A DNA stretch of 64,000 nucleotides from Pseudomonadota bacterium (GTDB lineage: Bacteria; Desulfobacterota; Desulfobacteria; Desulfobacterales; JBDRRP01). The stretch is taken from contig JBDRRP010000115.1 of assembly GCA_043825735.1 (NCBI GenBank), positions 62,001 to 126,000 on the forward strand, given 5' to 3'. The position numbers and the translations under genes were made by a program. The notes beneath the pieces are model-generated. The model saw only the letters and a program-made list of their open reading frames with translations. It was not told the origin of the DNA and made no database searches. Shown piece after piece: positions 804 through 40,498 of the stretch. How positions within the stretch are numbered: position 1 is the stretch's first letter; each line of letters begins with the position of its first letter.

Positions 804-879
804 GCCACCGTAGCTCAGTTGGTAGAGCAGCTGATTCGTAATCAGCAGGTCCGCGGTTCGACTCCGCGCGGTGGCTCCA
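804..879 (+). tRNA. tRNA-Thr (anticodon CGT)
   Basis: 76 nt. Acceptor GCCACCG/CGGTGGC, D arm AGCTCAGTTGGTAGAGC, anticodon stem GCTGA/TCAGC with loop TT-CGT-AA, T loop GGTTCGACTCC, encoded CCA. Confidence 0.97.
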
Positions 880-2982: not shown

Positions 2983-4128
2983 ATGTTTAGTAAGATTCTG
3001 ATTGATGGTTATCGGGACATGAAAAATTTTCTTATTGCTAAACCAACAAGGTTTAATCTTTTTGTTGGAGAGAACAATTCAGGGAAAACAAGCTTGCTCG
3101 AAGCAATTTTCATGCATTGTGCACCGGTTAATTTTAATGTAATTTTGGGAGTGTTATCAATGAGGCATGGGGGTTTTCTTGGAAACCAAAAATATATTGT
3201 TGATAATCTTAGATGGTTTTTCAGTGAGCCAGAGGGGAAGTCGGTTTTAAAGATAAATATAGAAAGTTATTACAATGGGAAAAAAAGACTTTCAGAAATT
3301 GAGCTTGAAGATATTTCAAAGAACTCAGTTATGACGGATATTCTGTCCGGAAATAATGCATTAAAACATGCTCATTTCGATACAGGTTCATCTGCAAAAA
3401 GTGTAAAAATTGAACTAAATCGAATATTGGATAGTGAAATTGAAGGGATAGCATATGGTATTCTGACGTATAAGTTTGCTAACAAAGAAGGAAGTGTGGA
3501 ATCGCGGCAGGTATTCGATAGTAAAAGAGAATTGACAATTTTATCTCCAAAAATAAGAACTGATATAGAAACCAAGATATTATCTACTTCATTTTTTAAA
3601 AGGCCTGAATCCGGTGTGACGGAATGGGACAAGGCGGTTAAGAAACGAATTAGTAAAGATGCAATAGAAATAATGCAAAAAATTGACAACAAGATTATAG
3701 GGGCGCAGATATTAATGTCTGCGCCAAATACGGCAGAATTGTATGTGGAGTACAAAGGCCTTGGGTTAATGCCGCTTAGTGGTTTGGGCGATGGAATTAG
3801 GAAAATGCTTATAATAGCTTTAAGCTTATCAGAATGCAGAAACGGGGTCCTATTAATTGATGAGATTGAACAGGCAATCCATTACAATGCATTAGTTCCA
3901 TTCCTTGACTGGTTAATGAAAATGGCTAAAGATCATGATGTCCAAGTTTTTGCAACAACTCATAGCCTTGAGTGTATAGATGCGCTAATTAATACAAATA
4001 TTAATAACTTAAATGATATTAGCTTATATAAAATGTTCAGGGAGAATTATACGCTTACTAATAAAAAAATTAGTGGCCCGAAGTTGAAAACTCTGCGAAT
4101 TGAAATGGGACAAGATGTAAGGTGGTAA
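2983..4128 (+). CDS. ABC-type (AAA_15/AAA_21-like) ATPase
   Basis: Walker A GENNSGKTS, signature-like LGDG, Walker B LLIDEIE, H-loop TTHS. Confidence 0.9.
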   Translation: MFSKILIDGYRDMKNFLIAKPTRFNLFVGENNSGKTSLLEAIFMHCAPVNFNVILGVLSMRHGGFLGNQKYIVDNLRWFFSEPEGKSVLKINIESYYNGKKRLSEIELEDISKNSVMTDILSGNNALKHAHFDTGSSAKSVKIELNRILDSEIEGIAYGILTYKFANKEGSVESRQVFDSKRELTILSPKIRTDIETKILSTSFFKRPESGVTEWDKAVKKRISKDAIEIMQKIDNKIIGAQILMSAPNTAELYVEYKGLGLMPLSGLGDGIRKMLIIALSLSECRNGVLLIDEIEQAIHYNALVPFLDWLMKMAKDHDVQVFATTHSLECIDALINTNINNLNDISLYKMFRENYTLTNKKISGPKLKTLRIEMGQDVRW

Positions 4129-4910
4129 AAATGGAATATGGATATCTTGTTGTTGAGGGTACACACGACCTTGAATTCGTAGGAAAGATATTAAAGCATG
4201 CAGGCTTAAAACTAATTCGAAAGCACGAAGAATTAGATGCGTTTTGGAAAAATTCAAAGTTGATACCAACCGTTTTTCCATTTGACGGCGACTTGTTAAA
4301 AAGAGCGCCAGTTCCTCAATTTTATCAAAACAATAATATTGCTATTGCAATTCATTGTGCAAACAGCATAACAAATTTGACAAAAGTATATAAATATACT
4401 TTTGATAATGATAACCGAATGCCAGGAATGCTTAAAAGCGCAGGAGCTGTTTGCGACGCTGATAACAACAATGATAATGCTGTAGAAAGTACATTCAATG
4501 GAATTAGAGGCGCGTTGCCTGAGAATTATTTCCATGCCACTCAGCCAGGAGTTGTTACAATAAATGGATTTAGAAATGGTGCTTTTATTATGCCAGATAA
4601 TGTTAATAATGGGACATTCGAAGATTTATTGATTGAATGCGGAAAGAAAGTATATAGGAACCTGTTTGATGGCGCGAGTGTATTTATTAATGGTATTGAT
4701 TTGACGAAACTAAACACGGGCGAGAAGAAAGAACTAAATAAATTTGCTGGCAAGAAGAAAGCGATAATTGGTTGTATGGGGAATGTATTGAGGCCTAGCA
4801 AATCAATTGCGGTTACCATCAGCGACAACAGGTGGGTATCAGCCGATAGTTTAAAACTGCCAAATGTTAAAAGGCTTGTGGCCTTTATATCGCAATTGTT
4901 TGATTTATAA
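4122..4910 (+). CDS. TOPRIM-like (DUF3226-type) partner of the ATPase
   Basis: LVVEGxxD start motif, later DAD and GTFEDL motifs. Overlaps the ATPase stop. Confidence 0.75.
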   Translation: MVKMEYGYLVVEGTHDLEFVGKILKHAGLKLIRKHEELDAFWKNSKLIPTVFPFDGDLLKRAPVPQFYQNNNIAIAIHCANSITNLTKVYKYTFDNDNRMPGMLKSAGAVCDADNNNDNAVESTFNGIRGALPENYFHATQPGVVTINGFRNGAFIMPDNVNNGTFEDLLIECGKKVYRNLFDGASVFINGIDLTKLNTGEKKELNKFAGKKKAIIGCMGNVLRPSKSIAVTISDNRWVSADSLKLPNVKRLVAFISQLFDL

Positions 4911-6942: not shown

Positions 6943-7328
6943 TATAATGCTGACCGGCAAGGCTTCCAATTTGACAGCGCCATTGGGTTGTACGAGGAAT
7001 ACCATTCCTAATGTGCTGGATCTCAAAGATTACGGGATACCATCGATAGTGGCAAACATTCTGCGGTTTACAAGTCCGGAAACGGCCCACGGATCAAAGC
7101 AGAAATGTCTCTATGGGAGATTAGTGGGTTATGTTTAGGGCAATCCTAAATACTTCGACTTTGTGTGGGATGGTTTAAATATCCAGAGCGCCACCTAATA
7201 ATTCGTTATTTTTTGTAAATTTGGCAGGCTCTGCCATCCTCACGCCGAAGATCGGCGGTCAACGGCCAAGTGTTTGCGGTCTAAATCGAAACCGGCGGCA
7301 ATCGCCGCTTAACCCGATAAGGGCCGAA

Positions 7329-7419
7329 AACCTAACCGATTGATTTCATAATGGTTAGGTTGGTTTTTCGACTTAGGTTTCAGAACTAAACGGCGATTGC
7401 CGTCTAATAACTGTTCGCC
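7329..7419 (+). promoter_or_regulatory. attI-like leader with IHF consensus site
   Basis: Inverted repeat AACCTAACC/GGTTAGGTT overlapping a WATCAAN4TTR match (7333-7345, minus strand). Core GTTCGCC at 7413 is complementary to R'' of attC1. Confidence 0.55.
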
Positions 7420-7446
7420 GATGCCAAGGACTCCAAGGAGAGCCAC

Positions 7447-8481
7447 ATGTCCGTCCAAAAGCACATCAGGGAGTTGGTCTTGACCGAAGCCGGCTACCGC
7501 TGTGCTGTCCCCACGTGCCGCAGCATTCTGGCAATCGACCTACACCACATCGTTGAGGTCTCGCAGGACGGCAGCGACACGCCGGAGAACCTGCTCGCCC
7601 TGTGTCCTACGTGTCACGCCCTGTACCATCGCGGTACGATCACCCGTGGCTCTATCCAGAAATGGAAACAAGACCTGCTATCGGTGAGTTCACAGGATTT
7701 CAGAAGCAAGATCGAAGACGACGTCAGGACGGCAATCCTGTCAGCTGAACCATGGAACGAAGACCGACGGCACGGGTTCTCCCATGCTGCTTCAGAGTTC
7801 CTGGCCAGAACCTGTGAGGTGGGGTTCCTCGATGGCTCTCGGTTCATTCGAACCGGATATGCATGCTACATCGGCGACGGCAAGCTAATAACGGCCGGAG
7901 AGGTGATCGACTTCTTGCAGGAAATACTGCTGTACCGTCCCGGGAAGCCGTCGTTGCTCACGCGCGTAGGACTCGCCGATTTCGTTGTCGCGAAACGACT
8001 CGACTGGGGGAGTGTGACGTTCCTTGATGCAGCCCCTGTCGATACTGCCTACTGGCGGAAGATCACCGGCGGGTCGGGGGACGACATGCTGCCACTTCAG
8101 ACGGATGTGAAAACCAGACGGAACCCGTACATTGGCGAGCAAGTGGGCTTTCTCAACTCGCCGCACTGCACAGACGACGGACGCGGATTTGCGCTCTTCC
8201 AGTTCGAGACAGCTCACGTTTCATTCTTCCATCGAACGGAGGCGCTTACCTTGCACAACTACGTGCTCACGCCGGTGGTAAGCCGCATCCAGTACAGAGG
8301 TGCCCCGGTGTTCTCCGAACAAGGAGAATTGCTTGGCGTCCTACGAGACAGCATGAAGTCGGAGGACGAAGCAAGCTGTCGCCCGATCGCAGCCAACTTC
8401 ATTGGAGTCAAGGAGTTCAGAGAATGCGAGGGCGAACATCCGGATCCACTTGATGGCCCTGCTTCGCGCCGCCACAAGTGA
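7447..8481 (+). CDS. HNH endonuclease fused to a degenerate trypsin-like domain (cassette 1)
   Basis: CAVPTC...HHIV...NLLALCPTCHALYH. C-terminal LITAGE and YRGAPVFSEQGELLGV resemble the trypsin TAxH and GxSGxP motifs without catalytic His/Ser. Confidence 0.75.
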   Translation: MSVQKHIRELVLTEAGYRCAVPTCRSILAIDLHHIVEVSQDGSDTPENLLALCPTCHALYHRGTITRGSIQKWKQDLLSVSSQDFRSKIEDDVRTAILSAEPWNEDRRHGFSHAASEFLARTCEVGFLDGSRFIRTGYACYIGDGKLITAGEVIDFLQEILLYRPGKPSLLTRVGLADFVVAKRLDWGSVTFLDAAPVDTAYWRKITGGSGDDMLPLQTDVKTRRNPYIGEQVGFLNSPHCTDDGRGFALFQFETAHVSFFHRTEALTLHNYVLTPVVSRIQYRGAPVFSEQGELLGVLRDSMKSEDEASCRPIAANFIGVKEFRECEGEHPDPLDGPASRRHK

Positions 8482-8495
8482 TCCAAGCGTTGGGC
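8431..8495 (+). repeat. attC site 1
   Basis: GGCGAAC...GGATC(C)ACTTG(A)TGGC / GCCACAAGTGATCC...GTTGGGC; two extrahelical bases. Confidence 0.88.
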
Positions 8496-8516
8496 TTACG
8501 ATGAAAGAACAAAAAT

Positions 8517-9722
8517 ATGCTGCGTACTGCTGACTATACGATTCAAGGTTTCTTGTACCAGTTTAACAAGACTGCCTTGGAAATACTGAAAGCTCAGGAT
8601 GATGATACAATCACCGTTGAGGGCATTGTTGAGGACATCGAGATATCGTCCCCTGTATCCTTGACGGCAATTCAGTGCAAGTACCATGAGGCGAGCACAT
8701 CCTTCACTGCGAGCGCGGTATACAAGCCATTGCTCCAAATGCTCAAGCACTTCTCTGAGAATCAAACCGCGAACATTCGTTACATCCTATTTGCACATTT
8801 TCCAGGGGTTGGTGCGACGCCCCCGGCTGTCGCCAAGGCCACCCTACAGGCAGCCTTGGCGTCCAAAGACAAGGCGCTCATGAAGCACGTTGAGGCAGTA
8901 CCATCAGGAATTAACCTCGACACCTTCGAAGACCGTTTCACCATGGAGTTCGGCCCTAGTTACAACGACATTATGAAACAAGTCGGCAAGGAATTGGAGG
9001 CTAACGGGATTCAGGAGGACGACATTGAGACCCTCGCATATCCAAACGCAATTCATATGATCGCAACGCTCAGCGTGAAACATAACCCAGCAGACAGGAA
9101 TATAACGAAGAAACAGTTCCTTTCTGATCTTAAGGCTATCCGCACAACGGCAATCTCCCGGTGGACGCTGGCTCTCAAGACCCGAGATAAACTACTTCAG
9201 GCGCGTCGCAAGCAACTCAAGGTGCACCTGGATAAAAATGCTCGGCTCCGCTACTTCGTCATTAACCCTAACAGTATTGAAGACTACGACACCGAGATCG
9301 TCATTTTTATCATCGACTATATCGACAAATACCACTTCAAACAGGCGCACATCAGCACACCCGTAATGTGCCTTTGCGCAAACCTAAGCCAGATTCAAGA
9401 CATCCAGCACCGATTATACGCAAAAGGCATTGTTGCAACAGACGGCTATGTGGGCGCGAATTTCGAGGGTTCGTTTTTCTTTCGGGAGCCGCTGTTTTCC
9501 AAGAGCACTGGAGGCAAATTGAAGCGCGAATTCTCCCTACGCATCTTAAGTTGGGAGGAGCACGGGAAGGTACTGAACGACCGAAAGTGTGATGACCTCT
9601 TCATCATTGGCGAGCCGGACTGTGATTTACTCGACACCGTGGACGTAAATGTCGAGCGCCTGACAGGTGCAACAATGAAGGAAATCAAATACATCATGGG
9701 GGTAAGCAATGCCTACGAATAG
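8517..9722 (+). CDS. DUF4297/Cap4-like PD-(D/E)xK nuclease of a DUF4297-HerA type system (cassette 2)
   Basis: GFLYQ...EGIVEDI...AIQCKY N-terminal nuclease motif; overlaps herA. Confidence 0.8.
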   Translation: MLRTADYTIQGFLYQFNKTALEILKAQDDDTITVEGIVEDIEISSPVSLTAIQCKYHEASTSFTASAVYKPLLQMLKHFSENQTANIRYILFAHFPGVGATPPAVAKATLQAALASKDKALMKHVEAVPSGINLDTFEDRFTMEFGPSYNDIMKQVGKELEANGIQEDDIETLAYPNAIHMIATLSVKHNPADRNITKKQFLSDLKAIRTTAISRWTLALKTRDKLLQARRKQLKVHLDKNARLRYFVINPNSIEDYDTEIVIFIIDYIDKYHFKQAHISTPVMCLCANLSQIQDIQHRLYAKGIVATDGYVGANFEGSFFFREPLFSKSTGGKLKREFSLRILSWEEHGKVLNDRKCDDLFIIGEPDCDLLDTVDVNVERLTGATMKEIKYIMGVSNAYE

Positions 9723-11481
9723 TATCGGCCAGGTTCTATCCTGTTCCCCGGAGGCAATCATCGTTCTCATTGACAATTTAAAGGTGTTCGAAGAGCACAA
9801 GACGGTGCTTCAGGTAGGTCGCTACCTACGGATTGCACAGGGAAACAACGACTTCACTGTTGCTGCAATCCGGAACGTCCGTGGCGTTCTCGGCCAAGAT
9901 GCTGATGGCAACCCGAAATGGCAGTTCCACATTGAATGCCAGGCTGTCGGTACACTGGTTGACGGAAAAGTGTTCGAACGAGCAAGTGTTCTCTTGCCCG
10001 TGCCAACTGAGCCAGCGTTTCCGGCAGACAAAGAAACCCTTGACAATCTCTTTGCCGAAGATACCGACTATCAGTTCCCCCTTGGCCAGCTATCGCTTAA
10101 CAAGGCGATCGACATGAAAATCCATGGCGATCGCTTCTTCAGCAAGCATATCGCCATCGTGGGGTCCACCGGCTCTGGGAAATCATGTACCGTTGCTCGA
10201 ATTCTCCACGACGTGGTTGGAATCGCCGATGAGAAGAATTCGAACATCGGGAAGCAGAATAACTCCCACGTCGTGATCTTCGACATCCATGATGAATACA
10301 CGGCCGCGTTCACTTTGCAGAAGGATCAGAATTTCACATTGAATCGTCTCGATATAGACAGTCTTCAGCTTCCTTATTGGCTTATGAATTCTGAGGAGTT
10401 AGAAAGCATGTTCATTGAGAGCAATGAACAGAACTCCCACAACCAAGTCAGCCAGTTCAAGCAAGCAGTTATTCTGAACAAGGAAAAACACAATCCGGGG
10501 ATCAAGGAGATGACTTACGATACCCCGGTTTATTTCTCAATTACGGAAGTCTATCAGTATATTGAAAACATGAACCGGGAGGTGATTGGTCGTCTTGAGA
10601 ACGAAAACCAGCCGAAACTTGCGGATGGGTCGATAGTTTCTGACCGTCGCGTTTACTTCAATGAATCCAAGTCTTTCGTTGCCACTTCTACTGCCAAGGC
10701 CGACAAGGCGACAAATGGGCCATTCAACGGAGAATTCAACCGCTTCGTATCGCGGCTGGAAACCAAGCTCGCAGATAAGCGCCTACGCTTCTTGCTTCAC
10801 CCGGGTAAGCCTGGCGGTATTCCTTACAAGACTGATGATTTCGAAGAGATTATAAAGCAGTTCGTCGGTTATCTGAACAAAGCGAATATCACGATCGTAG
10901 ACCTCAGTGGAATTCCGTTTGAAGTTTTGAGTATCACGGTGAGTCTCGTCTCTCGACTAATATTCGACTTTTGCTTCCACTACTCAAAGCTGCGCCACGA
11001 AAACGATGCTTTGAACGATGTGCCTGTCATGATTGTTTGTGAAGAAGCCCACAATTACATACCTCAGAAAGATAACGCTGCATATCGTGCATCACGTGAA
11101 TCGCTCGAGCGTGTTGCGAAAGAGGGGAGGAAATACGGACTCAGCCTCATGGTTGTGAGCCAACGTCCGTCAGAGGTTTCTGAAACAATATTCGCTCAGT
11201 GCAATAATTTCCTTGCGCTCAGGCTTACTAACAACGCGGATCAAAATTACGTCAGGAGGCTATTCCCAGACAATACAAGTGGGATTACGGACATCCTACC
11301 GAACCTCGCCTCCGGCGAATGTATTGTCGTGGGCGATGCTGTTCTGCTTCCCGCCGTTGTCCAAATGCCATTACCGAAACCTGAACCGCATTCACGGAGT
11401 GTTTGTTTCCACAAAGAATGGAAGGAGCCGTGGCGGGATGTAACGTTCGCAGCGGTTACTAGTCGCTGGAGAAAGGAATAA
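9709..11481 (+). CDS. herA: HerA/FtsK-family ATPase (cassette 2)
   Basis: HIAIVGSTGSGKS, FDIHDEY, EEAH, AKEGRKYG, SQRPSE. Confidence 0.93.
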   Translation: MPTNSIGQVLSCSPEAIIVLIDNLKVFEEHKTVLQVGRYLRIAQGNNDFTVAAIRNVRGVLGQDADGNPKWQFHIECQAVGTLVDGKVFERASVLLPVPTEPAFPADKETLDNLFAEDTDYQFPLGQLSLNKAIDMKIHGDRFFSKHIAIVGSTGSGKSCTVARILHDVVGIADEKNSNIGKQNNSHVVIFDIHDEYTAAFTLQKDQNFTLNRLDIDSLQLPYWLMNSEELESMFIESNEQNSHNQVSQFKQAVILNKEKHNPGIKEMTYDTPVYFSITEVYQYIENMNREVIGRLENENQPKLADGSIVSDRRVYFNESKSFVATSTAKADKATNGPFNGEFNRFVSRLETKLADKRLRFLLHPGKPGGIPYKTDDFEEIIKQFVGYLNKANITIVDLSGIPFEVLSITVSLVSRLIFDFCFHYSKLRHENDALNDVPVMIVCEEAHNYIPQKDNAAYRASRESLERVAKEGRKYGLSLMVVSQRPSEVSETIFAQCNNFLALRLTNNADQNYVRRLFPDNTSGITDILPNLASGECIVVGDAVLLPAVVQMPLPKPEPHSRSVCFHKEWKEPWRDVTFAAVTSRWRKE

Positions 11482-11484
11482 AGT

Positions 11485-11546
11485 GCCCAACCAAAGCATT
11501 CAGCGGATCGCAAAAAGCGCGCGCTCATTGATGCCCAGCGTTAGAA
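11485..11546 (+). repeat. attC site 2 (partly degenerate)
   Basis: GCCCAAC three bases after the herA stop, imperfect GCATTCAGCGGATCGC / GCGCTCATTGATGC arms, GTTAGAA. Confidence 0.78.
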
Positions 11547-11751
11547 GCCGCGCACTGCGCCTATCATTCTACAATTGGCGGCGCACCAGGTTGAATAGAG
11601 GAACATGGCAACCATTCTTCATGACAACTGCGACAGAATTAGACCGACGTCAGCCTAATCCACTTTGAATACGACGTCTATTAAATATGAATGTTAGACC
11701 ACCAGGTGAGAAACGTCTGATCAACCATAAACGATATTTGGGAACAGCAGA

Positions 11752-12747
11752 ATGACGAAGAAATCGCTAAATCGAAGCCTGGGTGTCGCGAAGGCGACCA
11801 AGCAGGATGAATTTTACACCCAGCTCTCGGACATCGAGAAAGAACTACGGCATTACACAAAGCACTTCAAGAACAAGACCGTCCTGTGTAACTGTGACGA
11901 TCCCAAGGTCAGCAACTTCTTTCACTACTTCTCGTACAATTTCGAGAAGCTTAAGCTAAAAAAGCTGATCACCACCTGCTACAAGAATTGCGATGCCGAT
12001 CTGTTCAGCCAGCACAAAGAGGAAAGAGGACTCTACCTCGAATACGACGGTGACAAGAACGATAACCGAGTCCCCGATCCGGACGAAATCGGCATTTACA
12101 AGCTAAAAGGCGACGGTGATTTTCGCAAAGAGGAATGCGTTAAGCTGCTCAAGCGAGCGGATATCGTCGTCACCAATCCGCCGTTTTCATTGTTCAGGGA
12201 ATATCTCGAGCAGTTGATGATGTACAAGAAGAACTTTCTGATCATTGGGAATCACAATGCGATCATCTACAAAGAGATTTTCCCGTTGATAAAGGACAAC
12301 AAGATGTGGCTGGGCAATACGCACCCTGTCGCCTTCGTCGTCCCCGATCATTATGAAATGCGAAAGGTGAGGAGTTGGCGCGACGAGAACGGAACGAATT
12401 GGCGCAGCCTGGGAAACGCCTGTTGGTTCACCAACCTTGACATCTCCAAGCGTCATGATGAGTTACCGCTATACGAAAAGTACACGCGGAAGAAATTTCC
12501 AAAGTACGACAACTACGAGGCGATTGAGGTCGCGCGATATAAAGAAATTCCGGATGACTACGACGGCGTGATGGGCGTCCCGGTGACATTCCTTGAGCAT
12601 TACAATCCTGAGCAATTTGAGATCATCGGCTGCAATCGAGGCGTCGACCAAGACCCGAAAGGTGTCTACGGAAGGGGTTCGCATCTGAACGGCAAAGAGA
12701 CTTTCAAGCGAATCTTCATCCGAAATAAAAAACCAATTTTGGAGTGA
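11752..12747 (+). CDS. Adenine DNA methyltransferase, M.EcoRI family (cassette 3)
   Basis: DEFYT, VLCNCDDP, GDGDFR, DIVVTNPPFSLF, MGVPVTFL. Confidence 0.9.
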   Translation: MTKKSLNRSLGVAKATKQDEFYTQLSDIEKELRHYTKHFKNKTVLCNCDDPKVSNFFHYFSYNFEKLKLKKLITTCYKNCDADLFSQHKEERGLYLEYDGDKNDNRVPDPDEIGIYKLKGDGDFRKEECVKLLKRADIVVTNPPFSLFREYLEQLMMYKKNFLIIGNHNAIIYKEIFPLIKDNKMWLGNTHPVAFVVPDHYEMRKVRSWRDENGTNWRSLGNACWFTNLDISKRHDELPLYEKYTRKKFPKYDNYEAIEVARYKEIPDDYDGVMGVPVTFLEHYNPEQFEIIGCNRGVDQDPKGVYGRGSHLNGKETFKRIFIRNKKPILE

Positions 12748-13307
12748 ATGACATGACCGACTTTGATTACTGGAAGAAACAGTACAAGGAGACTTGGGGA
12801 CGGTCGTCTCAAAGAGAGACGGCCATTGCTGAGTATTTGGCGCAAGCGTCCGGCGAGAAGATTAAGCCAGTGGGTCTGGGGGCTGGCAGTGCAGACTTCC
12901 TTTCTGGATCGGCGTCAGCGCACGGTCATGTAAAGGGGGACGCTGACCTCGTAGTCGTTGGAACGAGTATCTACCTCGAAGTGACGGGACCGCTTGTGCC
13001 GAGTGTCGATCAAAACCAAGACCTGTGGGTCAGGCCTGACAAAGTTGCAAATGCCAACAAGAACAAAATCTCACACGAGACATGGGTTGTGCATCACCTG
13101 CCAAAGAACAATCTGATTCGAGTTGTGCCACTTGATAGTGGGTTTTGGCAAGCGTTAGAAGCTGGCGTCTTTCCTATAGTGACGCCTCGCATTCGTGGAG
13201 TGCAGGAGCGATATCACGCTATCCCGGCAACGCACTCATGCGTCAAATCTTGCAGTGTACTGATTCAGAGACTTACGAACATTTCGACTAAAGGACAAGC
13301 CCGATGA
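12744..13307 (+). CDS. Hypothetical protein, possible restriction-endonuclease fold
   Basis: GDADL...YLEVTG resembles PD-(D/E)xK. Overlaps both neighbours by 4 nt. Confidence 0.55.
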   Translation: MNDMTDFDYWKKQYKETWGRSSQRETAIAEYLAQASGEKIKPVGLGAGSADFLSGSASAHGHVKGDADLVVVGTSIYLEVTGPLVPSVDQNQDLWVRPDKVANANKNKISHETWVVHHLPKNNLIRVVPLDSGFWQALEAGVFPIVTPRIRGVQERYHAIPATHSCVKSCSVLIQRLTNISTKGQAR

Positions 13308-14398
13308 AGATCGAACTCAAAGAGATCACGGTGCAGAAGTTGACCGACGGCTTCGCGGACAACGACGAGCATGGAGTCGTCGCGTATGGCGGATATCTCG
13401 ACATTCGACCGCCGTATCAAAGAGAATTCATCTACAAGGACAAGCAGCGAGATGCGGTGATCGACAGCGTGCGCAAGGACTTTCCGCTGAATGTGATGTA
13501 CTGGGCGGTGCGCAATGACGGCCATTACGAGGTGATCGATGGGCAACAGCGCACAATTTCGATTTGTCAGTACGTCAATGGAGACTTCTCTATCGTCGGG
13601 CTCGCGTTCCACAATCTGCAAAACGATCAGCAACAACAAATTCTTGATTACAAATTGATGGTTTATTTCTGCTCCGGGACTGACAGCGAAAAGTTAGATT
13701 GGTTCAGAACCATCAACATTGCTGGCGAGGAACACACCGATCAGGAATTGCGCAACGCGGTTTATGCTGGACCGTGGACTGCCGACGCCAAGCGCTATTT
13801 CAGCAAGACGGGTTGCCCTGCCTACGGGCTGGCGAGTGACTACGTAAAGGGCATCGCCATCCGGCAGGAGTATCTTGAAACGGCTATCGGATGGCACGCG
13901 AGCGCGACGTCGGAGGGCACGATCGAAGAGTACATGTCGAAGCATCAGGACGATCCCAACGCCGTCGCACTGTGGAACTACTTCCGGAGCGTCATTGACT
14001 GGACCAAGGCGTCCTTCCCGAAGTATCGCAAGGAGATGAAGGGCGTGAAGTGGGGGTCACTCTACAACGAGTTCGGGAGCAAGGCACTCGACGCCGGCAA
14101 GCTGGAGAAGCAGGTTGCAAAGCTAATGATGGACGACGATGTGCAGCGAAAACCGGGAATCTACCCTTATGTGCTGGATGGTGACGAAAGGCATCTGAAT
14201 ATCCGCTCGTTCTCCGACAACATGAAGCGGGAAACGTACGAAAGGCAAAAGGGTGTCTGCGTCAAGTGCAAGAAAAAATTTGAACTACACGAGATGGAAG
14301 GCGATCATATCAAGCCCTGGCACGAGGGCGGGAAGACTAACGCGGCGAACTGCCAGATGCTATGCAAAGAAGACAACCGAAGAAAGTCGGGGAAATAG
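13304..14398 (+). CDS. DUF262 (GmrSD-like) plus HNH nuclease
   Basis: YQREF, IDGQQR, FRTIN; C-terminal CVKC...DHIKPW...NCQMLC. Confidence 0.9.
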   Translation: MKIELKEITVQKLTDGFADNDEHGVVAYGGYLDIRPPYQREFIYKDKQRDAVIDSVRKDFPLNVMYWAVRNDGHYEVIDGQQRTISICQYVNGDFSIVGLAFHNLQNDQQQQILDYKLMVYFCSGTDSEKLDWFRTINIAGEEHTDQELRNAVYAGPWTADAKRYFSKTGCPAYGLASDYVKGIAIRQEYLETAIGWHASATSEGTIEEYMSKHQDDPNAVALWNYFRSVIDWTKASFPKYRKEMKGVKWGSLYNEFGSKALDAGKLEKQVAKLMMDDDVQRKPGIYPYVLDGDERHLNIRSFSDNMKRETYERQKGVCVKCKKKFELHEMEGDHIKPWHEGGKTNAANCQMLCKEDNRRKSGK

Positions 14399-14403
14399 GA
14401 AAG

Positions 14404-14463
14404 GTCTAACAATCGCTTGCAGCGGACGCAGTCAAGCCACGCCGCTGAGGCGCGGCGTTACAA
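14404..14463 (+). repeat. attC site 3
   Basis: GTCTAAC...CGCTT(G)CAGCGG(A)CG / CGCCGCTGAGGCG...GTTACAA; matches the cassette start GTTAGAC at 11693. Confidence 0.85.
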
Positions 14464-14931
14464 ACCGCTCACTATGCGCCTATCAATGGTTTATGCCGGC
14501 CGATTCGCATTCATCGAGGAATATCTAACCCATTCTATTTGCGCTCGGCTCTCAGTGCGCCACCATCTTACCGCTCCGGTCCCGCGCCCCCATCGAGCCT
14601 TGACGCTGCCCCATCTACCGGCCATCAGGTGGCCTCATTGCGGCGATCACAGGGTGGCTCGTTTACGGCGATCCCGGAATGGCTCTATGGCGCCGATCAC
14701 TAACAACACACATCTGAGGAATCGAGATACGCATCGACATGCCCCGTATCACCGAGGTGTACTTAAGCCATCCCCAGTCCAACCGGCCAACGTAAGGGGA
14801 ACTCGGCTATTGAGATTTGAGGTCAGCTTGACGTCCATTCAGACCTTGACAACCGGGCCAAAAGTAGACAGAGGTGAATGCAGGTATAAAGATTTAAAGG
14901 AATAAACCAAAAAAACCGAAGAGGAGGTCGG

Positions 14932-15468: not shown

Positions 15469-16467
15469 TCAGTCCTTCCATTCGTAGGCGGCGGCGGCAC
15501 GGCCGTAGACCCGGTCTGAGTCCGGCTTTTTTACCACGTCAAAGGGCCGGCCCGACCCGGGCAGGGGGTACCGGCCCAGGTCAGCCTTGGCGGCCGACTC
15601 GAAAAACCCGATCACCCGCTGGAAGTCCGATTCGGAGGCCATCCGGACCATGGCATCCGCGACATCGGCCGGGACGACCACGACCGACTTCCGGGCGCAT
15701 TCGGTCACCAGTGCCCGCCGGGCCTCATCGCGCTCGCGCGCGGTCCGGGCCATAGCGTCCAGGGCCTCGACCCGCTCCATCAGGGCCGACTCGAAGATTT
15801 CCGCGTTGGCCAAACGCTCGGTCAACTCGTCCACCTTGTAAACCGCAGACGCGATCCACCCGTGCATGATGGCCTCGGCCTGGGCGCCCTCGATACCGGC
15901 TTTCGCGATGGATTCGAGCACCATGTCTTTGGTCTCTGCCGACTCCAGGACGTACCCACGGTTTGACGAAAACCCCGGATTGAGCACGTAGTCGAACCCC
16001 TCAAACGAACTTACCCGGGTCGTGCCATGACGACCGCCGTCACGCCCGCCCATGGCCCAGGAAAACCCCCCGACACGGCTTTCGTGAAGGCCCTGAACTA
16101 CGCGGCCCGGTGCGTTCGCGACCAGCAGTTCCTGGGCATGGCTCACATTGCCAGCCTCATCGATCTCGAAGGCAGTGGTCACGCACGCCGGCACGTTGTC
16201 GACAATCACGAAACTGCCGTCCGGCATCTGGACCCGCTCGGACTCTGCGATGGCGGCCTTGCCTGCCATTTCCCTGCGGCCGTGGCCGAGGAAGCCCAGC
16301 TTCTCCCGCAATCTGATCCCCTCCCGGGTGGCCGGGGCGTAACACACCTCACGGGCGTTCTCCAGAACGTACTTGCGATGATGGCCGGTGTATTTGCGGC
16401 CCTCATCGAACAGATTGAACTGACACTCGATTACCGGCCCGGGGCCGGCCCCCTGTTTTGCTCCCAT
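15469..16467 (-). CDS. pro: P1 Pro-like prohead processing protease
   Basis: Directly downstream of the portal; GHGRR, GGFSWA and GFDYV..P motifs of prohead proteases. Confidence 0.75.
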   Translation of the reverse strand: MGAKQGAGPGPVIECQFNLFDEGRKYTGHHRKYVLENAREVCYAPATREGIRLREKLGFLGHGRREMAGKAAIAESERVQMPDGSFVIVDNVPACVTTAFEIDEAGNVSHAQELLVANAPGRVVQGLHESRVGGFSWAMGGRDGGRHGTTRVSSFEGFDYVLNPGFSSNRGYVLESAETKDMVLESIAKAGIEGAQAEAIMHGWIASAVYKVDELTERLANAEIFESALMERVEALDAMARTARERDEARRALVTECARKSVVVVPADVADAMVRMASESDFQRVIGFFESAAKADLGRYPLPGSGRPFDVVKKPDSDRVYGRAAAAYEWKD

Positions 16468-16469
16468 GA

Positions 16470-18146
16470 TCAGTCTCCCGCGTAAAACCGGTTTATCATT
16501 CTGGTAACCGCCGACTCCATCACCGACTCACCGCCCTCGCCGGCCTCACCGCCCTCGCCAGGCGGCGGGGCCACCTTTCCCGGAAACATGGATTTGAATT
16601 TCTCTTCATCGACGCGCAACACATCGGTAAAGAGATAGTTTGCCACGGCCGGGAAATCGCACTTTGAAAAATCTGGGTCGATCATTTGGACCACCTGCGC
16701 GATCATGGTGGCCAGGTTGATGCGCCCCTGCATATTGTCGGCCTCCTCGCGCTCCAGGGCCGACGAAATCGAGTTGAACACCAGCCGCCATGGTCTTTGC
16801 CCTGGCAGGAAATATTTGCCGTGTTTCAGGGCCACATGGATGCAGAACAGTTCCTCAATTCCGGTGCGGATCGCATGCCGTATTGCCTCCGATTTGATGG
16901 CCGCGAGGATCGACAGCCGGAAGAACCCGCCCTCCCCGAGGCCACCACTCAGCATGTCACCGAAGCCGAGTAGCGACGGATCTACGCCGAGTCCGCCTCC
17001 GAGTCTATTGACGTGGAATTTCACATCCTCCAGCCCGTCTATGTTCGGAGAGCCCTCCACGGTGGATATGTCCAACCGGCCCCGGTCTCCGAAGATCGGG
17101 ACCAGGTGGTTCACGATGGTCTGCACGAACCCCTTGGCCAGGCTTTGCCGGGCGTGGGCCTCGTTGGCCCGCTTGAGCCGTGATGAAATGGTGTTGAGGT
17201 ACTCGGCCGCCTTAACCGGCGAGAGCTTCCCGGTCTGAACGCCCACCAGGCGCTCCAGGCGGGCCGCATTGCGCCGGCTCATATTGAGGCTCAGGATTGC
17301 TTGTTGGAGGTCATACCAAGGTTCGTAGGCCGTTCTGAGCAGACTATCGCCGTAGTTCTGTGTCTCGACCAGTTCCTCGCGGTAACAGTCGTCATCCCGG
17401 ATATCGAACTGGTCGATATCGTACCTGGTCGGTTCGACATCGCCCTGGGTATGCCACTTCGGCAGTTTGAAGGCCACGAATTTCCAGGGCTCGATTACCT
17501 GGATCCGCCCCTCCCTGGCCGTGTTCTGGTACGCATGCGTGTACCCGGCGAGGCGGCCGCCGTGCTCGTATTCCTTCAAAAACCTGGGGTGGGTGTAGTA
17601 GTCGCTACGGACATGCTCGATCCCCTTCCCGGGGACTCCATAGGGCCGGAGATACCAGACGCCAAGCGTTGCCGCATTGTAGGCCCACTCCTGGCATCTG
17701 GAGTTGATCAAGTCTTTGAAGGTTTCGCGCAAATCGTTGACGATAGGGTCGTCCTTGTCGCCCAACGACTCGACGCTGACTATCTCGCCGGTGCCCGTCT
17801 TCGCGCTCAGGGACTGGGAGACGTGAAGCGCGATCGCTGCACTGATTGTCGGGTCAGAGATCATGCAGGCGTAGGTCGAATACCTGGCCAACCGATCCCG
17901 CGGCAGCATGCCGATAAGCTGGTCGTCTTCGGCCGATAACTCTGACGTGCTGTCGGGCAAAACCCCTTGCGCCCGCAGGAAGGCCTCCCCGAACGGGTGC
18001 GAGCCCATCACATCGCCCTGCGAGGCCATCCCGACGATATCGGAGCTTTCCTCGTTGCGCCCCTTGTCGAATCCGGGGAACAAACGACGGAATAAAGATA
18101 CCTTTTTTTCTTTACCGTCGTCCGAAACCTTCGGCTTTTTTGCCAT
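16470..18146 (-). CDS. prt: Portal protein (P1 Prt-like)
   Basis: 558 aa; DPTISAAI and LGVDPSLLGF portal-type motifs; prt-pro order. Confidence 0.8.
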   Translation of the reverse strand: MAKKPKVSDDGKEKKVSLFRRLFPGFDKGRNEESSDIVGMASQGDVMGSHPFGEAFLRAQGVLPDSTSELSAEDDQLIGMLPRDRLARYSTYACMISDPTISAAIALHVSQSLSAKTGTGEIVSVESLGDKDDPIVNDLRETFKDLINSRCQEWAYNAATLGVWYLRPYGVPGKGIEHVRSDYYTHPRFLKEYEHGGRLAGYTHAYQNTAREGRIQVIEPWKFVAFKLPKWHTQGDVEPTRYDIDQFDIRDDDCYREELVETQNYGDSLLRTAYEPWYDLQQAILSLNMSRRNAARLERLVGVQTGKLSPVKAAEYLNTISSRLKRANEAHARQSLAKGFVQTIVNHLVPIFGDRGRLDISTVEGSPNIDGLEDVKFHVNRLGGGLGVDPSLLGFGDMLSGGLGEGGFFRLSILAAIKSEAIRHAIRTGIEELFCIHVALKHGKYFLPGQRPWRLVFNSISSALEREEADNMQGRINLATMIAQVVQMIDPDFSKCDFPAVANYLFTDVLRVDEEKFKSMFPGKVAPPPGEGGEAGEGGESVMESAVTRMINRFYAGD

Positions 18147-18157
18147 CTGGTGGACCC

Positions 18158-18553
18158 CTATCTGAGTTCCATCTCCTCGTCGGCGGCTGTGAACTCAACC
18201 GCATCGCCGTCGGTCGTCGGCATGACATGGTAGGCATCGAGCACGTTCACCGAATTGAAACGGGCGTCCTCGTAGGCAAAGGCGGCAGCCAGGTTGTACG
18301 CTGGCGATCCATAATCCAGGTCCTCAATCCACTGGTAGTCCAGGTGCTCGCCGAAGGACAGGTCACCGGCCTCGATAAACATCCGCTTGAGAAGCCACCA
18401 GTACGGGCCATAGCCACGGTAGCGCTTCGGGTTTTTGAGTAGCAGAGCCCGGATCGCGGCCATCATTGCGGCGACCCATTCGGGCTCGGTCCTGGCGCCG
18501 GATCCGGCGGCGATCACCTTGTCCAGGTCCTCACGGTTTGGTTTCTCGATCAT
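18158..18553 (-). CDS. Ulx-like protein (DarB packaging helper in P1)
   Basis: Coupled downstream of darB as in P1; similar size. Confidence 0.55.
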   Translation of the reverse strand: MIEKPNREDLDKVIAAGSGARTEPEWVAAMMAAIRALLLKNPKRYRGYGPYWWLLKRMFIEAGDLSFGEHLDYQWIEDLDYGSPAYNLAAAFAYEDARFNSVNVLDAYHVMPTTDGDAVEFTAADEEMELR

Positions 18554-21500
18554 GTCATCACCTTATAAATCTCATCCAGCGGATAGGAGGAATTGACATA
18601 CCAGTACGCGCCGTCCAGTTGCATTGTCGTGCCGGAAAAAAATTGAGCCCCGTAGCGCACCTTGAGGATCTCTTTGACCCGGAAAAGCACCCCGCTCTTG
18701 CCGTGATTGTCCTGGAAAAACCACTTTTTGAATGCTGGGATCTCAACATCCCTGTACTTTTTGTACCGGCCCGTGCGCCGGCCCGGCAGAACGGTATTGG
18801 TCCGGTTGATTTTCACCTCGATCCCGAGTTGCGCGAAGGCGGCGCGGGCGTCTTCCGGCACCTCTTTATAGTTCGGATCGGCCTTGAGCCGCTCGTTTTC
18901 CTGCCGTTCCCGCTCAGCCCGGGCCTCGTCTTCGGCCTTACTTTGGGCCTCAACTAACGCGATAACCTTCTTGTCCAGTTCATCTTTGGCCGCGTCGTAG
19001 CATGTTACGATGACACGCATGATTTCGTCCGTGTTGTCGCCCAGGCTTTTGGCCGCGAGGCGTACATCGCTATACAGCTTGGACCGGTAGTCGCGCAACT
19101 GCATGTAGTCTGGATCGTTCGACCCCCCGCGGATGTTCTCATCGATCCACGTTTTGGTGTAGTCGGCGTAGAAGGCCCGGATTTCGGTCTCGGTGGCCTT
19201 TTTGCCGTACTCAGCCGCGGCGCCCTCCCAGTCGGATCCAAAGACCTTTTCCATGCAGCTTTTCAGGGAGTAGTCAACATAGCTGCGCTTCTCTCTGGCC
19301 GCGGCCAAATAGGTCTGGGCCAGCGCCTTGCGGAACACCTCGCTGCCGGGCTCAGGAAAAATGAGTTGGGCCGCATCATATATCCGTAACCAGGCATGGC
19401 CGGTGTCGGTGCGGAGCAATCCATCTCCATCCATCTTGATTTCTGCGGCGTGGGCCTCAAAGGTCTCTTTGTCGATCCCGCCTTCCATCAGGTTGAGGTA
19501 GGTGTGCCGCTTGGACAGCAGCTTCTTTAATGCCAACTCGGCTTCCGAGTAGGCCACCTTTACAAGATCCGGCAGCTTGGAAAGAAGATTTGCCCGGATA
19601 TCATTTCCGCCCGCGCCCTTTACCCAGGTATCGCCGCGCATCGAATAATAGCCGTGCGATACAACCTCCTCAAAAGAAACCGCCTTTGGGTCCGCATGCA
19701 CGCTGGCGATTTTAAAAATCCCGAGCAGATCGCCGTCCTTGTCTCGCGCTTCATAAGTCTCACCCACCGCGTACAGCGTGCCGTCCAGGCCGGCCACCGC
19801 ATTCTGTGGGTTATCGACCAGGGCCGCGTCAAACGGCAACTCGCCCTTTCCAGCCTTCAGTTTAAGGATGCTCTGGCTCTGCTTTTTCTTGGTTTCAAGG
19901 TCAGCTCGCTTGCGGGCGAAAACCTCATCCAGGGATTTCAAATCACCCTCTGCCAAAGACAACTCACGCTTTTTTCTGGTCAACCGCTCCGCCATAGCCG
20001 TCTTGGCCTCGCCCGGATCCATCTTGGCCCCGGCCGATTTCAACTCATCGATCTGCTTTTGGAGTTTGGGGATTTTCTCATCAAGTTTTTCCTTGCGCTT
20101 TTCCTTGGCGTCTTCAAGCCCAGCCAGAGCCTCGGCGACGTTGGACAGCTGCTGGAGCATGTTAACCAGGCGCTTGCGCTCACGCTCATCGCGATCGGCT
20201 TTTTGTTTTGCGAGCCGCCCCATCCGCCGGCGCTTGGCCTCTTCCGGATCGTCGGCGAGAAGATCAAGCATGTCATCGGCCCCAAGGGCGTTGGCATTCT
20301 CGGCCTCGGTCGCCTCGCCGGTCAGGAGTTCGTGCATCCAGCCAGACTTTCGCTTGAGCAGGTCCAGCCGGTACATATCAAAGGACCCCTTGCCCATGTA
20401 ATAGTAGATCTGGATGTGTGCGGCCGTGTTTCCCTGCCGGACCCCGCGGCCGTTTCTCTGCTGGATGCTGGCCGGCGTCCATGGCAGGGTCAGGTGGTGG
20501 ATGGCCGTGGTGCCCTTTTGGAGGTTGACACCGACCTCGGCTTTTTTATTTGCAATGACGATCTTGACCTTGCCGGAATTGTACTGGTCGGAGATCTGCT
20601 GGATCTTATCGCCGGCGGCCTCATCTGCGTTGATAATGGCGATCATGTCCCTTGACAGGGGGATGTGGTGGGACAGAAGCCGCTTGATCTTTCGGTGCTG
20701 GCTCTTTTCCTCGGTAAAAACGATCTGTTTGCCGTGGGCCTCCAGGTGCTTTCGAATGTTCTCCACCAGCTTGGCATACTTGGGCGCCATCGGATGGGTG
20801 ATGTCATTTTCATCCAGCCCGTGGCGCTTAATTTTCGTTGCGATGATATCCTCGGCGGCCTCCGGCACCACCATGATAAACGAGTCCCCGTCGGTCTTGA
20901 ATTTCGGTTCGCAGGGGACCTTCACCTTGATCTGCTTGCCGTTTTCGTCCTCCTCGTAGCCGTCGACCGTTGCGGGTAACTCGCTGGCCAGCGCCTCGAC
21001 CTTGGCCCGGTCCTGGGCCTTGAAGACAAAGGTCATTTGTCGTTTGTAGAGATCCGTGTCCATGGTAACCCGGTCCATTTTCCGGATCACGGAGAACATG
21101 CTGACCTTGGATCCGGGGACAGAAGCGGCCTTGGCGTCCTCTCGGAGCGATACGTATAGGTTCGACTGCTCTTCGGTCAGGTCAACATCTTCGTGCAACT
21201 CGTCGTGGGGCGGCAGTTCCAGGCCGACATCCTCGGCGGTTTTGAGCACCGTGTATTTGTGGAACAGGTTCCTGAGCCCGTCCAGGTTCCTGAACCCGGT
21301 CAGGCCGTCTTTGCTCTTCACGTCGCCGGAGACCATGACCTTGTCCACGGTCTCAATCTTGCCGAACACCCGCACAAAGTCATCGACGGTATAAACCCCG
21401 AACCGCTCGAATTCCTCGATCGGGGCCACGTATGACAGCATGTTGTATACTTCGAACGGGGAGTTGGTGACCGGGGTGGCGGTCATGGGGTAAACCCCGC

Positions 21501-24840: not shown

Positions 24841-25433
24841 TGCTTGGCGCCTTTCGCGATTATTTCAGTCTTTTGGGCCGAGGACATGGACGATCCGAAA
24901 AAATACTGTACGACCGCGCCTACGGCAGCACCGAGGGTCCCAAACAGCGAACCGAGCAGCATCACGGCAGCTTGCGGGATATCGCTTGGGACTTTCCCGG
25001 CCGCAATCCCGGCCACCATAATGATGATCGTCAGGAAATAGCCGCCGACGAAGAGGTAAGCCAGGATATAGAGGTTCATATCCCGCTTGCCGGTGGCCTT
25101 TTCCACCTGGACTTGTCGGTTCCGGGCGTCCCCCACATCGGCCAGCGTCGCAGACTGGCTGGCCTCAATGTGCCGGTGGTCTTCTTTTTTGTTCTCCAAG
25201 GCCAGTTGGCCGAGCGTGATCCGCTCATTTGACTGGAGGGACTCCATGGCGAGGACCTGCTCCGGGCTCAAGGCCGTCACTTGCTGCCCGCCGTCGGTGG
25301 TCAGCTTGATGCCGGTTTTTTCCTCGATAAACTCGACCGCTTTTTCTCCCGCGCCGTTGACGGCATCCGACAACAGGCCGAGGCCCTGCTTTGCAAGCAT
25401 CCCCGCGATCGATGCGATGATAGCTGGAATCAT
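24837..25433 (-). CDS. Putative holin-like membrane protein
   Basis: Two C-terminal TM segments ending in YFFGSS; coupled to the putative lysin. Confidence 0.65.
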   Translation of the reverse strand: MIPAIIASIAGMLAKQGLGLLSDAVNGAGEKAVEFIEEKTGIKLTTDGGQQVTALSPEQVLAMESLQSNERITLGQLALENKKEDHRHIEASQSATLADVGDARNRQVQVEKATGKRDMNLYILAYLFVGGYFLTIIIMVAGIAAGKVPSDIPQAAVMLLGSLFGTLGAAVGAVVQYFFGSSMSSAQKTEIIAKGAKQ

Positions 25434-26020
25434 TTGCCCCCCAATTCTGCTTCGTCGAGCAGCGTGTAGGTGTAGGTGGATCCGAACCGCGCTCCGGATC
25501 TCGCGATCGCCATGAAGATTTCGAAATCGGACCAGCTTGCCAGCACCTGACAACCGGCCGACCATTTATCAACGAGGACCGATTCCCCCTGCCATGCCGC
25601 GCAGTGGATGTTGATTCCGAACCATCCCGTTTCGGATTTACCGCCCGCGTCGATCTTGTTGTTGCGGTCATCGTCTCGGAAGACGGTCAGCGGCGCGGCC
25701 TGGACCAGGGCGTCATATTTCCCCTGATGTTTTCCGATCCGAAATGCGCTGCGGTACTGGCCTGGGGCGAGAACGGCGGTACCGAGAGTTGACATGGGGT
25801 TTTGAAGCCAATGCGAGCCCGGGTCGGTGGTCGCGGGGAAGGCCCAGAAAAGCCAGCGGTTCTGGTGGCTGGCGAACACCGCCACCATGTCGTCGAACCG
25901 GTTGGCCTCACGATTGGGTGAACGGATGCCGACGATGTTCAAATCGTGACGCCCGCCGCGGAAAACCGTGTAGCCCTTGGCATCCATGGCGGTGACAATT
26001 TGATTCACGGATGGGGTCAT
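25430..26020 (-). CDS. Putative endolysin with an L,D-transpeptidase-like His/Cys motif
   Basis: GINIH...WSAGCQV; adjacent to the holin-like gene. Confidence 0.6.
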   Translation of the reverse strand: MTPSVNQIVTAMDAKGYTVFRGGRHDLNIVGIRSPNREANRFDDMVAVFASHQNRWLFWAFPATTDPGSHWLQNPMSTLGTAVLAPGQYRSAFRIGKHQGKYDALVQAAPLTVFRDDDRNNKIDAGGKSETGWFGINIHCAAWQGESVLVDKWSAGCQVLASWSDFEIFMAIARSGARFGSTYTYTLLDEAELGGK

Positions 26021-26031
26021 GGTGGCCTCGA

Positions 26032-26056
26032 TAAAGTTATAAAGAAAACTTTATAG
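26032..26056. promoter_or_regulatory. TAAAG-N3-TAAAG-N4-CTTTA operator-like motif
   Basis: Same architecture at 54866 and 59857; upstream of the lysin-darB-portal gene run. Confidence 0.65.
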
Positions 26057-26086
26057 TAAAACGTGCAATGATTCAATAGCGACTGT

Positions 26087-32804: not shown

Positions 32805-32807
32805 GCC

Positions 32808-34594: not shown

Positions 34595-34626
34595 CTTGCG
34601 GCCTCAAAATAAGGTTGGACCCGTTC

Positions 34627-40488: not shown

Positions 40489-40498
40489 GGGTATTCTC

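Follow-up and report, generated by a model that had tools for sequence, protein, structure and literature searches.

An integron cassette array with multi-gene defence cassettes and no integrase of its own, in the probable left arm of a P1-like prophage

A 64,000-nucleotide stretch of a Desulfobacterales genome carries an integron cassette array that has no integrase of its own. The stretch (positions 62,001 to 126,000 of contig JBDRRP010000115.1, GenBank assembly GCA_043825735.1; hereafter the window) holds the array at 7286-14463, with six genes, all on the plus strand. Such an array is a CALIN, a cluster of integron cassettes without its own integron integrase (IntI, gene intI). It probably belongs to the accessory left arm of a temperate P1-like phage of 87 kb that has integrated at a tRNA-Thr gene. 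An earlier model reading of the letters and open reading frames (ORFs), made without database searches (the sequence-only reading), had proposed an integrase-less array of defence-like systems beside a prophage. Its interpretation is supported, with corrections given below: the cassettes are genuine, the array holds no integrase, intI genes lie elsewhere in the genome, and two of the three cassettes encode known defence families. Below, contigs of the assembly are cited by number (the window lies on C115), and loci of related cassettes as L030 and so on.

Cassette boundaries

Cassette edges in the array obey the integron joining rule. IntI crosses over at G|TT, so the opening bases of a cassette are complementary to its own R'' box. 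The match is exact for cassette 1 (GTTCGCC at 7413, GGCGAAC at 8431), cassette 2 (GTTGGGC at 8489, GCCCAAC at 11485) and cassette 3 (GTTAGAC at 11694-11700, GTCTAAC at 14404). The sequence-only reading had claimed this complementarity for all three; it was right for the first two and wrong in detail for the third, where the R' box of the preceding site, attC2, reads GTTAGAA and the exact GTTAGAC lies 154 nt further on. We place the true start of cassette 3 at 11694 because orthologous cassettes open with the same word behind unrelated DNA. GTTAGACC opens them in L102, L107 and L156, and GTTAGAC in L119; upstream of GTTAGACC the sequences of L102, L107 and L156 are unrelated, and the L119 locus begins at the motif.

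Exact chains of this kind far exceed chance. A genome-wide scan for AAC...GTT hairpins (score at least 11) gave 244 candidates and 110 neighbour pairs, 18 of them exact chains against 0.43 expected. The 18 fall in five loci, namely C22, C48, C58, C129 and the window. C48 is also an array found from seed sites (below). The window's chain was what first revealed attC0, the long hairpin at the array's entry, paired with attC1. The sequence-only reading had overlooked this site (7286-7419), as it had an ORF-less unit at 11541-11693 and a partial ORF-less unit 3' of attC3, with which the array continues beyond the end that it had set.

A covariance model aligns to the three proposed attC sites at 8431-8495, 11485-11546 and 14404-14463, exactly where they had been marked, with attC3 the one site that scores above noise. 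The model, R1, was built from 16 attC sites on other contigs of the same genome and none from the window; its consensus hairpin was hand-written, and the model is narrow and family-specific. In its seed alignment 88.6% of cells are paired, versus 78.1 +/- 1.4 in shuffled alignments (0 of 500 reach 88.6%), and 7 pairs have changed on both sides. Run over the 64-kb window with filters off, R1 returned 5 hits, with attC3 best and attC1 fourth; attC2 was the best hit of a 361-nt local search (scores in Table 1). All three alignments run end to end. The build of attC3 matches this genome's integron attC family. Two extrahelical bases had been described for attC1 and attC3: in attC1 they stand, on the expected arm, and in attC3 they appear in the model alignment and in hand pairing but not in the free fold.

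A first home-made attC finder was dropped: loose settings produced some 2.5 hits in every 10 kb, and strict ones lost all three sites. The sequence-only nhmmer search from four seed sites (E up to 10) did not reach the window sites. An Rfam search of positions 1-16000 (E up to 10) placed only the tRNA above its family cut-off; six other matches were far under theirs, and none lay at attC1, attC2 or attC3.

Homologous cassettes elsewhere

Cassette 2 recurs with the same edges in distantly related genomes. A scan with one genome per species found HerA relatives in 67 loci, at up to 91% identity, under metagenome-assembled genome labels that include Thermotogae, Nitrospirales, Chromatiales, Clostridia, Desulforhabdus, Acidobacteriota and NC10, among others. 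The DUF4297-HerA cassette keeps 80-91% protein identity from Thermotogae to Clostridia to Proteobacteria. Flanks were compared for the loci listed, 27 of the 67 downstream and 20 upstream. Among the 27, an attC-like site lies within a few bases of the HerA stop in seven, with R'' reading GCCCAAC in L038, L041 and L095, GCCCAGC in L030, GCCTAAC in L033, CCCAAC in L034 and GACCAAC in L083. Among the 20, four (L030, L034, L074 and L080) have GTTGGGC some 25 nt ahead of the DUF4297 start codon, as the window does. L033 starts with GTTAGGC, which matches its own GCCTAAC, so that both sides have changed together; it is also the sole locus among the 67 with an upstream intI homologue (46% identical).

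The model also detects attCs in some of these loci. In 767,982 bases R1 gave three hits. Two lie immediately behind HerA, in L041 (33.1 bits, E 1.6e-4) and L030 (25.7 bits), and the third about 0.9 kb past the HerA gene in L074. A hot-spring metagenome run from another study contains 96-98%-identical pieces, all inside cassette 2 (8574-11490); the only other piece listed, about 85% identical, falls in cassette 3 (13668-13818). By these comparisons cassette 2 is a travelling cassette whose edges, GTTGGGC...GCCCAAC, are conserved across phyla.

Cassette 3 behaves alike. Its last gene has 569 relatives in the metagenome scan, of which 80 were kept, and flanks were compared for the 49 of these 80 loci that were listed. 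GTCTAAC follows just after the stop and leads into a clean hairpin in L102, L107, L119, L122 and L123, and near variants of the word occupy the same place in L100, L115, L118 and L124. At E up to 1, R1 hit four of the 80 loci, with five hits in all, including one directly after the gene in L102 (29.8 bits) and one directly before the cassette in L107 (22.3 bits). The shared edges of this cassette are GTTAGACC...GTCTAAC.

Integrases and other arrays of the genome

The genome encodes two intact integron integrases, both away from the array. With the TIGR02249 model (cut-off 265 bits), intI matches lie on C139 (415.9 bits) and C64 (393.8 bits), each at a contig end; on C115 nothing exceeds the cut-off. 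The sequence-only reading had seen no intI upstream of the array and had proposed a search of the genome for one, and both points turned out as it anticipated. No complete integron, with intI and attI beside the array, is present, and the genes upstream encode Endonuclease I, cpYpsA and HU. An attC of 59 nt follows the C139 intI by about 520 nt on the same strand. Both intI genes (G000:C139:144283-146221 and C64:1-2060) have an N-terminal extension of about 100 aa, their frames spanning 427 and 424 aa against a model of 315 positions. The C139 intI reads in the same direction as its cassette, and C139 and C64 both end inside arrays.

Further arrays are scattered over the genome. With nhmmer and four seed sites we found arrays on C48 (5 sites), C57 (4) and C150 (2), and single sites on C50, C59, C22 and C90. 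The last 7 nt of a site on C48 are the exact complement of the next site's first 7 nt in three of four steps. The array on C59, a sister to that of the window, is chromosomal, adjoining rsmE, valS, nadC and lepA. Its cassettes (L193, 680-3186) include one protein with a RES domain and another with a Tae4-like amidase domain; none of the 11 proteins of this array matches PADLOC at 1e-05.

ORF-less units

Two ORF-less units, X and Y, are treated here as cassette-like on the strength of their junctions and copies. Unit X lies between two GTT junctions, ahead of cassette 3. Near full-length copies occur on C59, C90 and C112, with copies also listed on C79, and its 5' module alone recurs on C59, C112 and C11 and in the window at 14464-14540 (X'). 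On C59, X follows an attC R' box (GTTAAAC) and ends in ...TATGAAT GTTAAGT, and the next attC has ACTTAAC as its R'', the exact complement. Together with GTTAGAC in the window, this gives two independent cases in which the 3' end of X acts like a cassette junction. The pairing of GTTACAA with X', seen after attC3, occurs three times in C59. Unit X was considered as an attC in its own right and rejected: R1 gives it at most 5.6 bits, and its fold is no better than shuffles. The bipartite motif of the 5' module, GCGCCTATCA followed after about 30 nt by GGAAYAT...CATTC, is found in the window at 11541-11618 and 14464-14540 and also on C15, C89, C92, C59, C112 and C11; it follows attC sites in arrays and also stands alone between convergent genes at three chromosomal places.

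Unit Y ends in the entry site of the array. Its homology with the C59 copy stops at GTT, and that copy is fused behind an X 5' module. After the GTT comes the HNH cassette in the window and an unrelated 391-aa gene in C59, in line with the earlier expectation that related arrays would differ in cassette content. The chain rule was also tried for unit Y in C59 and does not extend to the next attC read there, whose R'' is GTCTAAC where GCATAAC was expected; two genes lie between, and the gap between them was left unread.

Table 1. Features of the locus, in window coordinates
Feature	Position	Strand	Basis or remark
tRNA-Thr(CGT); last 46 nt (834-879) are the left att repeat	804..879	+	ARAGORN, Rfam
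Two-gene candidate defence system, PDC-M38/AbiL-like; not part of the array	2983..4910	+	PADLOC PDC-M38A 1.5e-58, PDC-M38B 1.6e-11; Pfam
Unit Y, non-coding; contains attC0 and ends in the array entry site	7050..7415	+	83% identical over 366 nt to C59:7478-7113
attC0, long hairpin of 134 nt; R' GTTCGCC at 7413-7419	7286..7419	+	No bulged bases; not a canonical attC
Cassette 1 gene, HNH plus HtrA/DegS-like trypsin fold	7447..8481	+	344 aa; Pfam HNH 9.6e-09
attC1; R'' GGCGAAC, R' GTTGGGC	8431..8495	+	Two single-base bulges (T, G) on the bottom strand; R1 10.8 bits, at noise level
Cassette 2 gene 1, DUF4297 (nuclease-type effector of DUF4297-HerA)	8517..9722	+	PADLOC PDLC02187 5.9e-46
Cassette 2 gene 2, HerA ATPase	9709..11481	+	PADLOC PDLC02188 1.1e-173; Pfam DUF87 7.4e-30
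attC2; R'' GCCCAAC, R' GTTAGAA	11485..11546	+	R1 7.1 bits (local search)
Unit X, ORF-less, between two GTT junctions, about 154 nt	11541..11693	+	5' module motif GCGCCTATCA...GGAACATGGCAA
GTTAGAC, true start junction of cassette 3	11694..11700	+	Complement of attC3 R''; orthologous starts
Cassette 3 gene 1, EcoRI-like N6-adenine DNA methyltransferase	11752..12747	+	Pfam PF13651 2.6e-131; PADLOC MTase_II 7.5e-127
Cassette 3 gene 2, 184 aa, Hjc/RecU-like PD-(D/E)xK fold	12753..13307	+	Predicted structure; no Pfam or PADLOC match
Cassette 3 gene 3, GmrSD_N (DUF262) plus HNH nuclease	13304..14398	+	PADLOC REase_II 7.1e-142; Pfam GmrSD_N 2.4e-18, HNH 9.1e-12
attC3; R'' GTCTAAC, R' GTTACAA	14404..14463	+	R1 18.3 bits, E 0.059
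X' module, 5' part of another ORF-less unit	14464..14540	+	Follows attC3
25-nt tandem repeat, multi-copy, about 80 nt, at the join of array and phage body	14628..14702	+	Logan contigs break at 14652/14677
P1-like myovirus prophage body	15469..64000	-	PHROGs
Prophage genes: portal; DarB-like; sheath; terminase	16470-18146; 18550-24840; 50576-52624; 61360-62835		PHROGs

Cargo

Two of the three cassettes encode known defence families. The sequence-only reading had called the array exclusively defence-like, which is supported for cassettes 2 and 3 and a guess for cassette 1. It had also described these two as unusually large, with two and three genes; they measure 3051 nt and 2763 nt, and the gene counts were correct. 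The DUF4297 and HerA genes of cassette 2 are adjacent, overlap by 14 nt and match their PADLOC models over full length, in keeping with the defence pair already named from the letters.

Cassette 3 combines putative type II restriction-modification components, a methylase and a nuclease matching MTase_II and REase_II, with an inserted gene of PD-(D/E)xK fold; either of its two nucleases may be the methylase's cognate enzyme. Because orthologous cassettes have two genes, the methylase leading straight into the nuclease, the 184-aa ORF of the window is an insertion. It sits exactly between its neighbours, with overlapping stop and start codons. The protein has 265 homologues, none with a functional name, and its structural model (pLDDT 85.5) resembles Hjc/RecU-type nucleases (Foldseek E 1.5e-03, probability 0.98-1.0).

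Cassette 1 encodes a two-domain protein. An AlphaFold model (pLDDT 77) shows an N-terminal HNH domain (residues about 5-90) and a C-terminal HtrA/DegS-like fold, the latter matching DegS in Foldseek at E 3.4e-09. No Ser/His/Asp set occurs among the invariant alignment columns of that C-terminal domain, so the trypsin-fold domain probably lacks a catalytic triad and may serve as a non-catalytic sensor. At least 21 full-length relatives are found among the matches listed, at 33-81% identity. The label of defence for this cassette is a guess, based on its nuclease domain and on the genes around it.

The prophage around the array

The array lies inside the att repeats of an integrated phage. The 46-nt repeat at 834-879 recurs exactly at window-coordinate 88026-88071, and these are its only two copies; no third was found at 75% identity or more. 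In G002, a relative from the same family, contig C473 carries the tRNA at 1313-1389 and, from 1612, the homologue of the DNA beyond attR, which makes it an empty site. Repeats and empty site together put the array within an 87-kb insertion, 6.4 kb from its left end. The earlier description of the array as next to a prophage was thus right about the neighbour and too modest about the relation, since the array falls within the repeats that bound it.

The insertion resembles phage P1 in gene content. Beyond the genes in Table 1, PHROGs identify Ulx-, DdrA-, Hdf-like, PmgB/C/G-like and baseplate genes, completing a P1-type virion, Dar and Pmg set whose resemblance is at the level of protein families only. 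Past the window lie replication genes, a repressor and an integrase (window-coordinate 86946-87956). The element is not a plasmid prophage of the kind with ParA/ParB and Cre-lox; it is integrated at tRNA-Thr, with the integrase beside attR. Its portal protein has one relative in IMG/VR, 64% identical, in an element that carries ParA and a recombinase, and was not found in the two other genomes of the family. A P1-type anti-restriction set (DarB-like, of 2096 aa, and Ulx-, DdrA- and Hdf-like) stands alongside the defence cassettes, at 18158-24840, 36456-36791 and 39883-40536.

Alternative readings

Several observations weigh against an active, phage-borne array. Control DNA (62,440 bases) produced R1 scores of up to 10.6 bits, which leaves attC3 as the one site that the model supports by itself. 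Folded freely, attC1 and attC2 do no better than shuffled sequences (z -0.5 to +0.9), and attC3 does only moderately better (z -1.4 and -3.0 in two runs). The hairpin of attC0 is strong (bottom strand -29 to -31 kcal/mol, z -4.5 and -5.4), with unequal spacers and no bulged bases; these are absent from attC2 as well. A promoter scan gave 6 sites where chance predicts 6.5. A search of 400 other genomes from the phylum turned up no full-length homologue of cassette 1, which beyond its HNH domain has no PADLOC defence-family match. In the IMG/VR relative, the 10 kb past the portal gene contain no array.

A possible, though not favoured, explanation is that the array is a fossil, its cassettes captured once, its sites since decayed and the block now a fixed defence island. 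The state of attC2 argues for it. The fold of this site reaches -7.1 kcal/mol, versus -15.6 and -15.1 for the orthologous attCs of L038 and L041; relative to these, its 5' half is kept (GCCCAAC...CAGCGGATCGC) and the matching 3' arm is lost. From the lost arm and the weak fold we read attC2 as a degenerate version of the attC found behind HerA in orthologous cassettes. The unbulged attC0, the extra gene within cassette 3 and the lack of a nearby intI point the same way. Yet attC1 and attC3 retain the expected build, the genome has two intact intI genes, and the sister array differs in content right after the shared entry site, and these points speak against a fossil.

Somewhat less probable still, by our estimate, is that real cassettes sit in DNA that does not belong to the phage: either the left arm (880 to about 14650) is a separate island in tandem with the prophage, or a chromosomal array has been mis-joined to the phage at the 25-nt repeat. 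A second integrase, split, adjoins tRNA-Thr, so the left arm could be a separate island, and GC content is 0.47-0.54 in the array against 0.56-0.63 in the phage to its right. The join between array and phage passes through a multi-copy repeat at which Logan contigs break, and contig depth in the source run is 10.8-11.5 for the array versus 16 for the phage. The repeat unit, GGTGGCCTCATTGCGGCGATCACAG, always ending ...CGATCACTAACA, has further copies at C18:10434-10585, C44:14-142, C59:79-207 and C78:12-139, where it ends all four contigs, including the one with the chromosomal sister array; its summed depth is 111-154 versus about 11 for the array contigs, about 10 times genome depth in the source metagenome. 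We read it as a dispersed tandem repeat and rejected it as a transposon end, because C18, the contig behind it, contains no transposase and both flanks differ between copies. Phage carriage of the array depends on the assembly join through this repeat. Against both versions, no att copy lies between array and phage, the repeat copy in the window shows base differences of its own and lies between unique flanks, either configuration of the two att copies puts the left arm beside phage DNA, and relative G002 lacks the whole block. An apparent joint at 7415 (24 nt on the shorter side) is explained by contig C59.

That the sites are chance hairpins or terminators in an ordinary defence island, as the weak fold z-scores and the low R1 scores of attC1 and attC2 might suggest, is very improbable and is already contradicted by the orthologous cassettes, which in unrelated genomes show the same 7-nt edges followed by model-detected attCs, and by exact chains far above chance.

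A cassette array carried by an integrated temperate phage remains the reading that we prefer. In it, each cassette would once have entered through IntI recombination at the G|TT of a folded attC, the enzyme presumably supplied from elsewhere in the genome. The two IntI enzymes of this genome use the same attC family, and attC0, attC1, the end of unit X and attC3 are sites where they could still remove or insert cassettes; with attC2 worn, cassette 2 has probably become locked to the DNA behind it. The cargo would provide nuclease-based immunity through DUF4297-HerA, a methylase with two nucleases, and an HNH protein whose second domain is probably a sensor. Within a lysogen this cargo would protect the host, and hence the prophage, against other phages. 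We also entertain, with considerable doubt, a broader picture in which a temperate phage keeps a docking row for cassettes and uses the host's IntI to swap multi-gene defence systems, lysogens sample a pan-phylum pool, and X and Y represent a new type of accessory site for integrons or of promoter cassette.

Neighbouring features

A GC-poor islet (1728-4910, GC 0.35) stands beside tRNA-Thr. Its integrase is split into two frames, 1728-2498 and 2459-2950, the first 270 nt being GC-rich. The two genes of its candidate defence system encode an AAA_15/21 ATPase (2983-4128) and a DUF3226 protein (4122-4910). At its right edge, 31 nt on the minus strand (4993-5023) resemble the 3' end of the tmRNA gene (C155:74247-74598), and a second such piece occurs on C6; the 31 nt may be the remnant of an element that targeted ssrA. 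As an att site they were rejected, with no tmRNA gene on C115 and no repeat partner. Between islet and array, in the prophage left arm, the HU-like, cpYpsA (SLOG) and Endonuclease I genes overlap one another (5200-6942).

Relation to known systems and significance

The locus resembles a typical CALIN in having several attC-bounded cassettes in one orientation, no intI nearby and integrons elsewhere in the genome. It differs in being embedded in a prophage, in its ORF-less X and Y units with atypical long sites, and in the decay of one attC.

Phages with such arrays are on record: both temperate and virulent phages have been described with CALINs, and a P1 phage with integrons (PMC9892861, Front Microbiol 2023). 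Methyltransferase genes occur among the phage cassettes of that article, as they do here. The cargo it describes consists of single-ORF cassettes and orphan methylases, whereas the present array holds multi-gene defence cassettes of 2.8-3.1 kb; and its P1-like phage occupies a tRNA gene instead of persisting as a plasmid. With phage P1 itself the element shares DarB-, Ulx-, DdrA-, Hdf- and PmgB/C/G-like genes and sheath and baseplate modules, a similarity of protein families only, and it differs in its tyrosine integrase at tRNA-Thr.

Anti-phage systems in integron cassettes have likewise been reported, both for sedentary chromosomal integrons, with CALIN cassettes counted too (bioRxiv 10.1101/2024.07.02.601686), and for mobile integrons (bioRxiv 10.1101/2024.07.02.601719). 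The main text of the former contains no occurrence of HerA or DUF4297, and a literature search found no paper combining "DUF4297" and "integron"; supplements lay outside both searches. Compared with the DUF4297-HerA system as modelled in PADLOC (PDLC02187/PDLC02188), the putative defence pair found here forms one integron cassette, whose edges are the same from phylum to phylum.

Since CALINs on phages and integron-borne defence cassettes are both in print, the locus is a clear new example and not a new kind. Its fresher points are the multi-gene cassettes of about 3 kb whose edges appear conserved across phyla, the P1-type host phage with Dar genes, the X and Y units, and the gene nested in a restriction-modification cassette.

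One locus here unites two recent findings, that integron cassettes carry anti-phage systems and that phages carry attC arrays. Complete defence systems of two and three genes, each of about 3 kb, travel as single cassettes with the same edges in distant phyla, and their probable carrier here is a P1-like prophage that has anti-restriction genes as well. The X and Y units and the gene inserted in the restriction-modification cassette give integron research definite starting points. Should the array be packaged and still recombine, phages would carry cassettes between hosts, and integrons would re-arm prophages.

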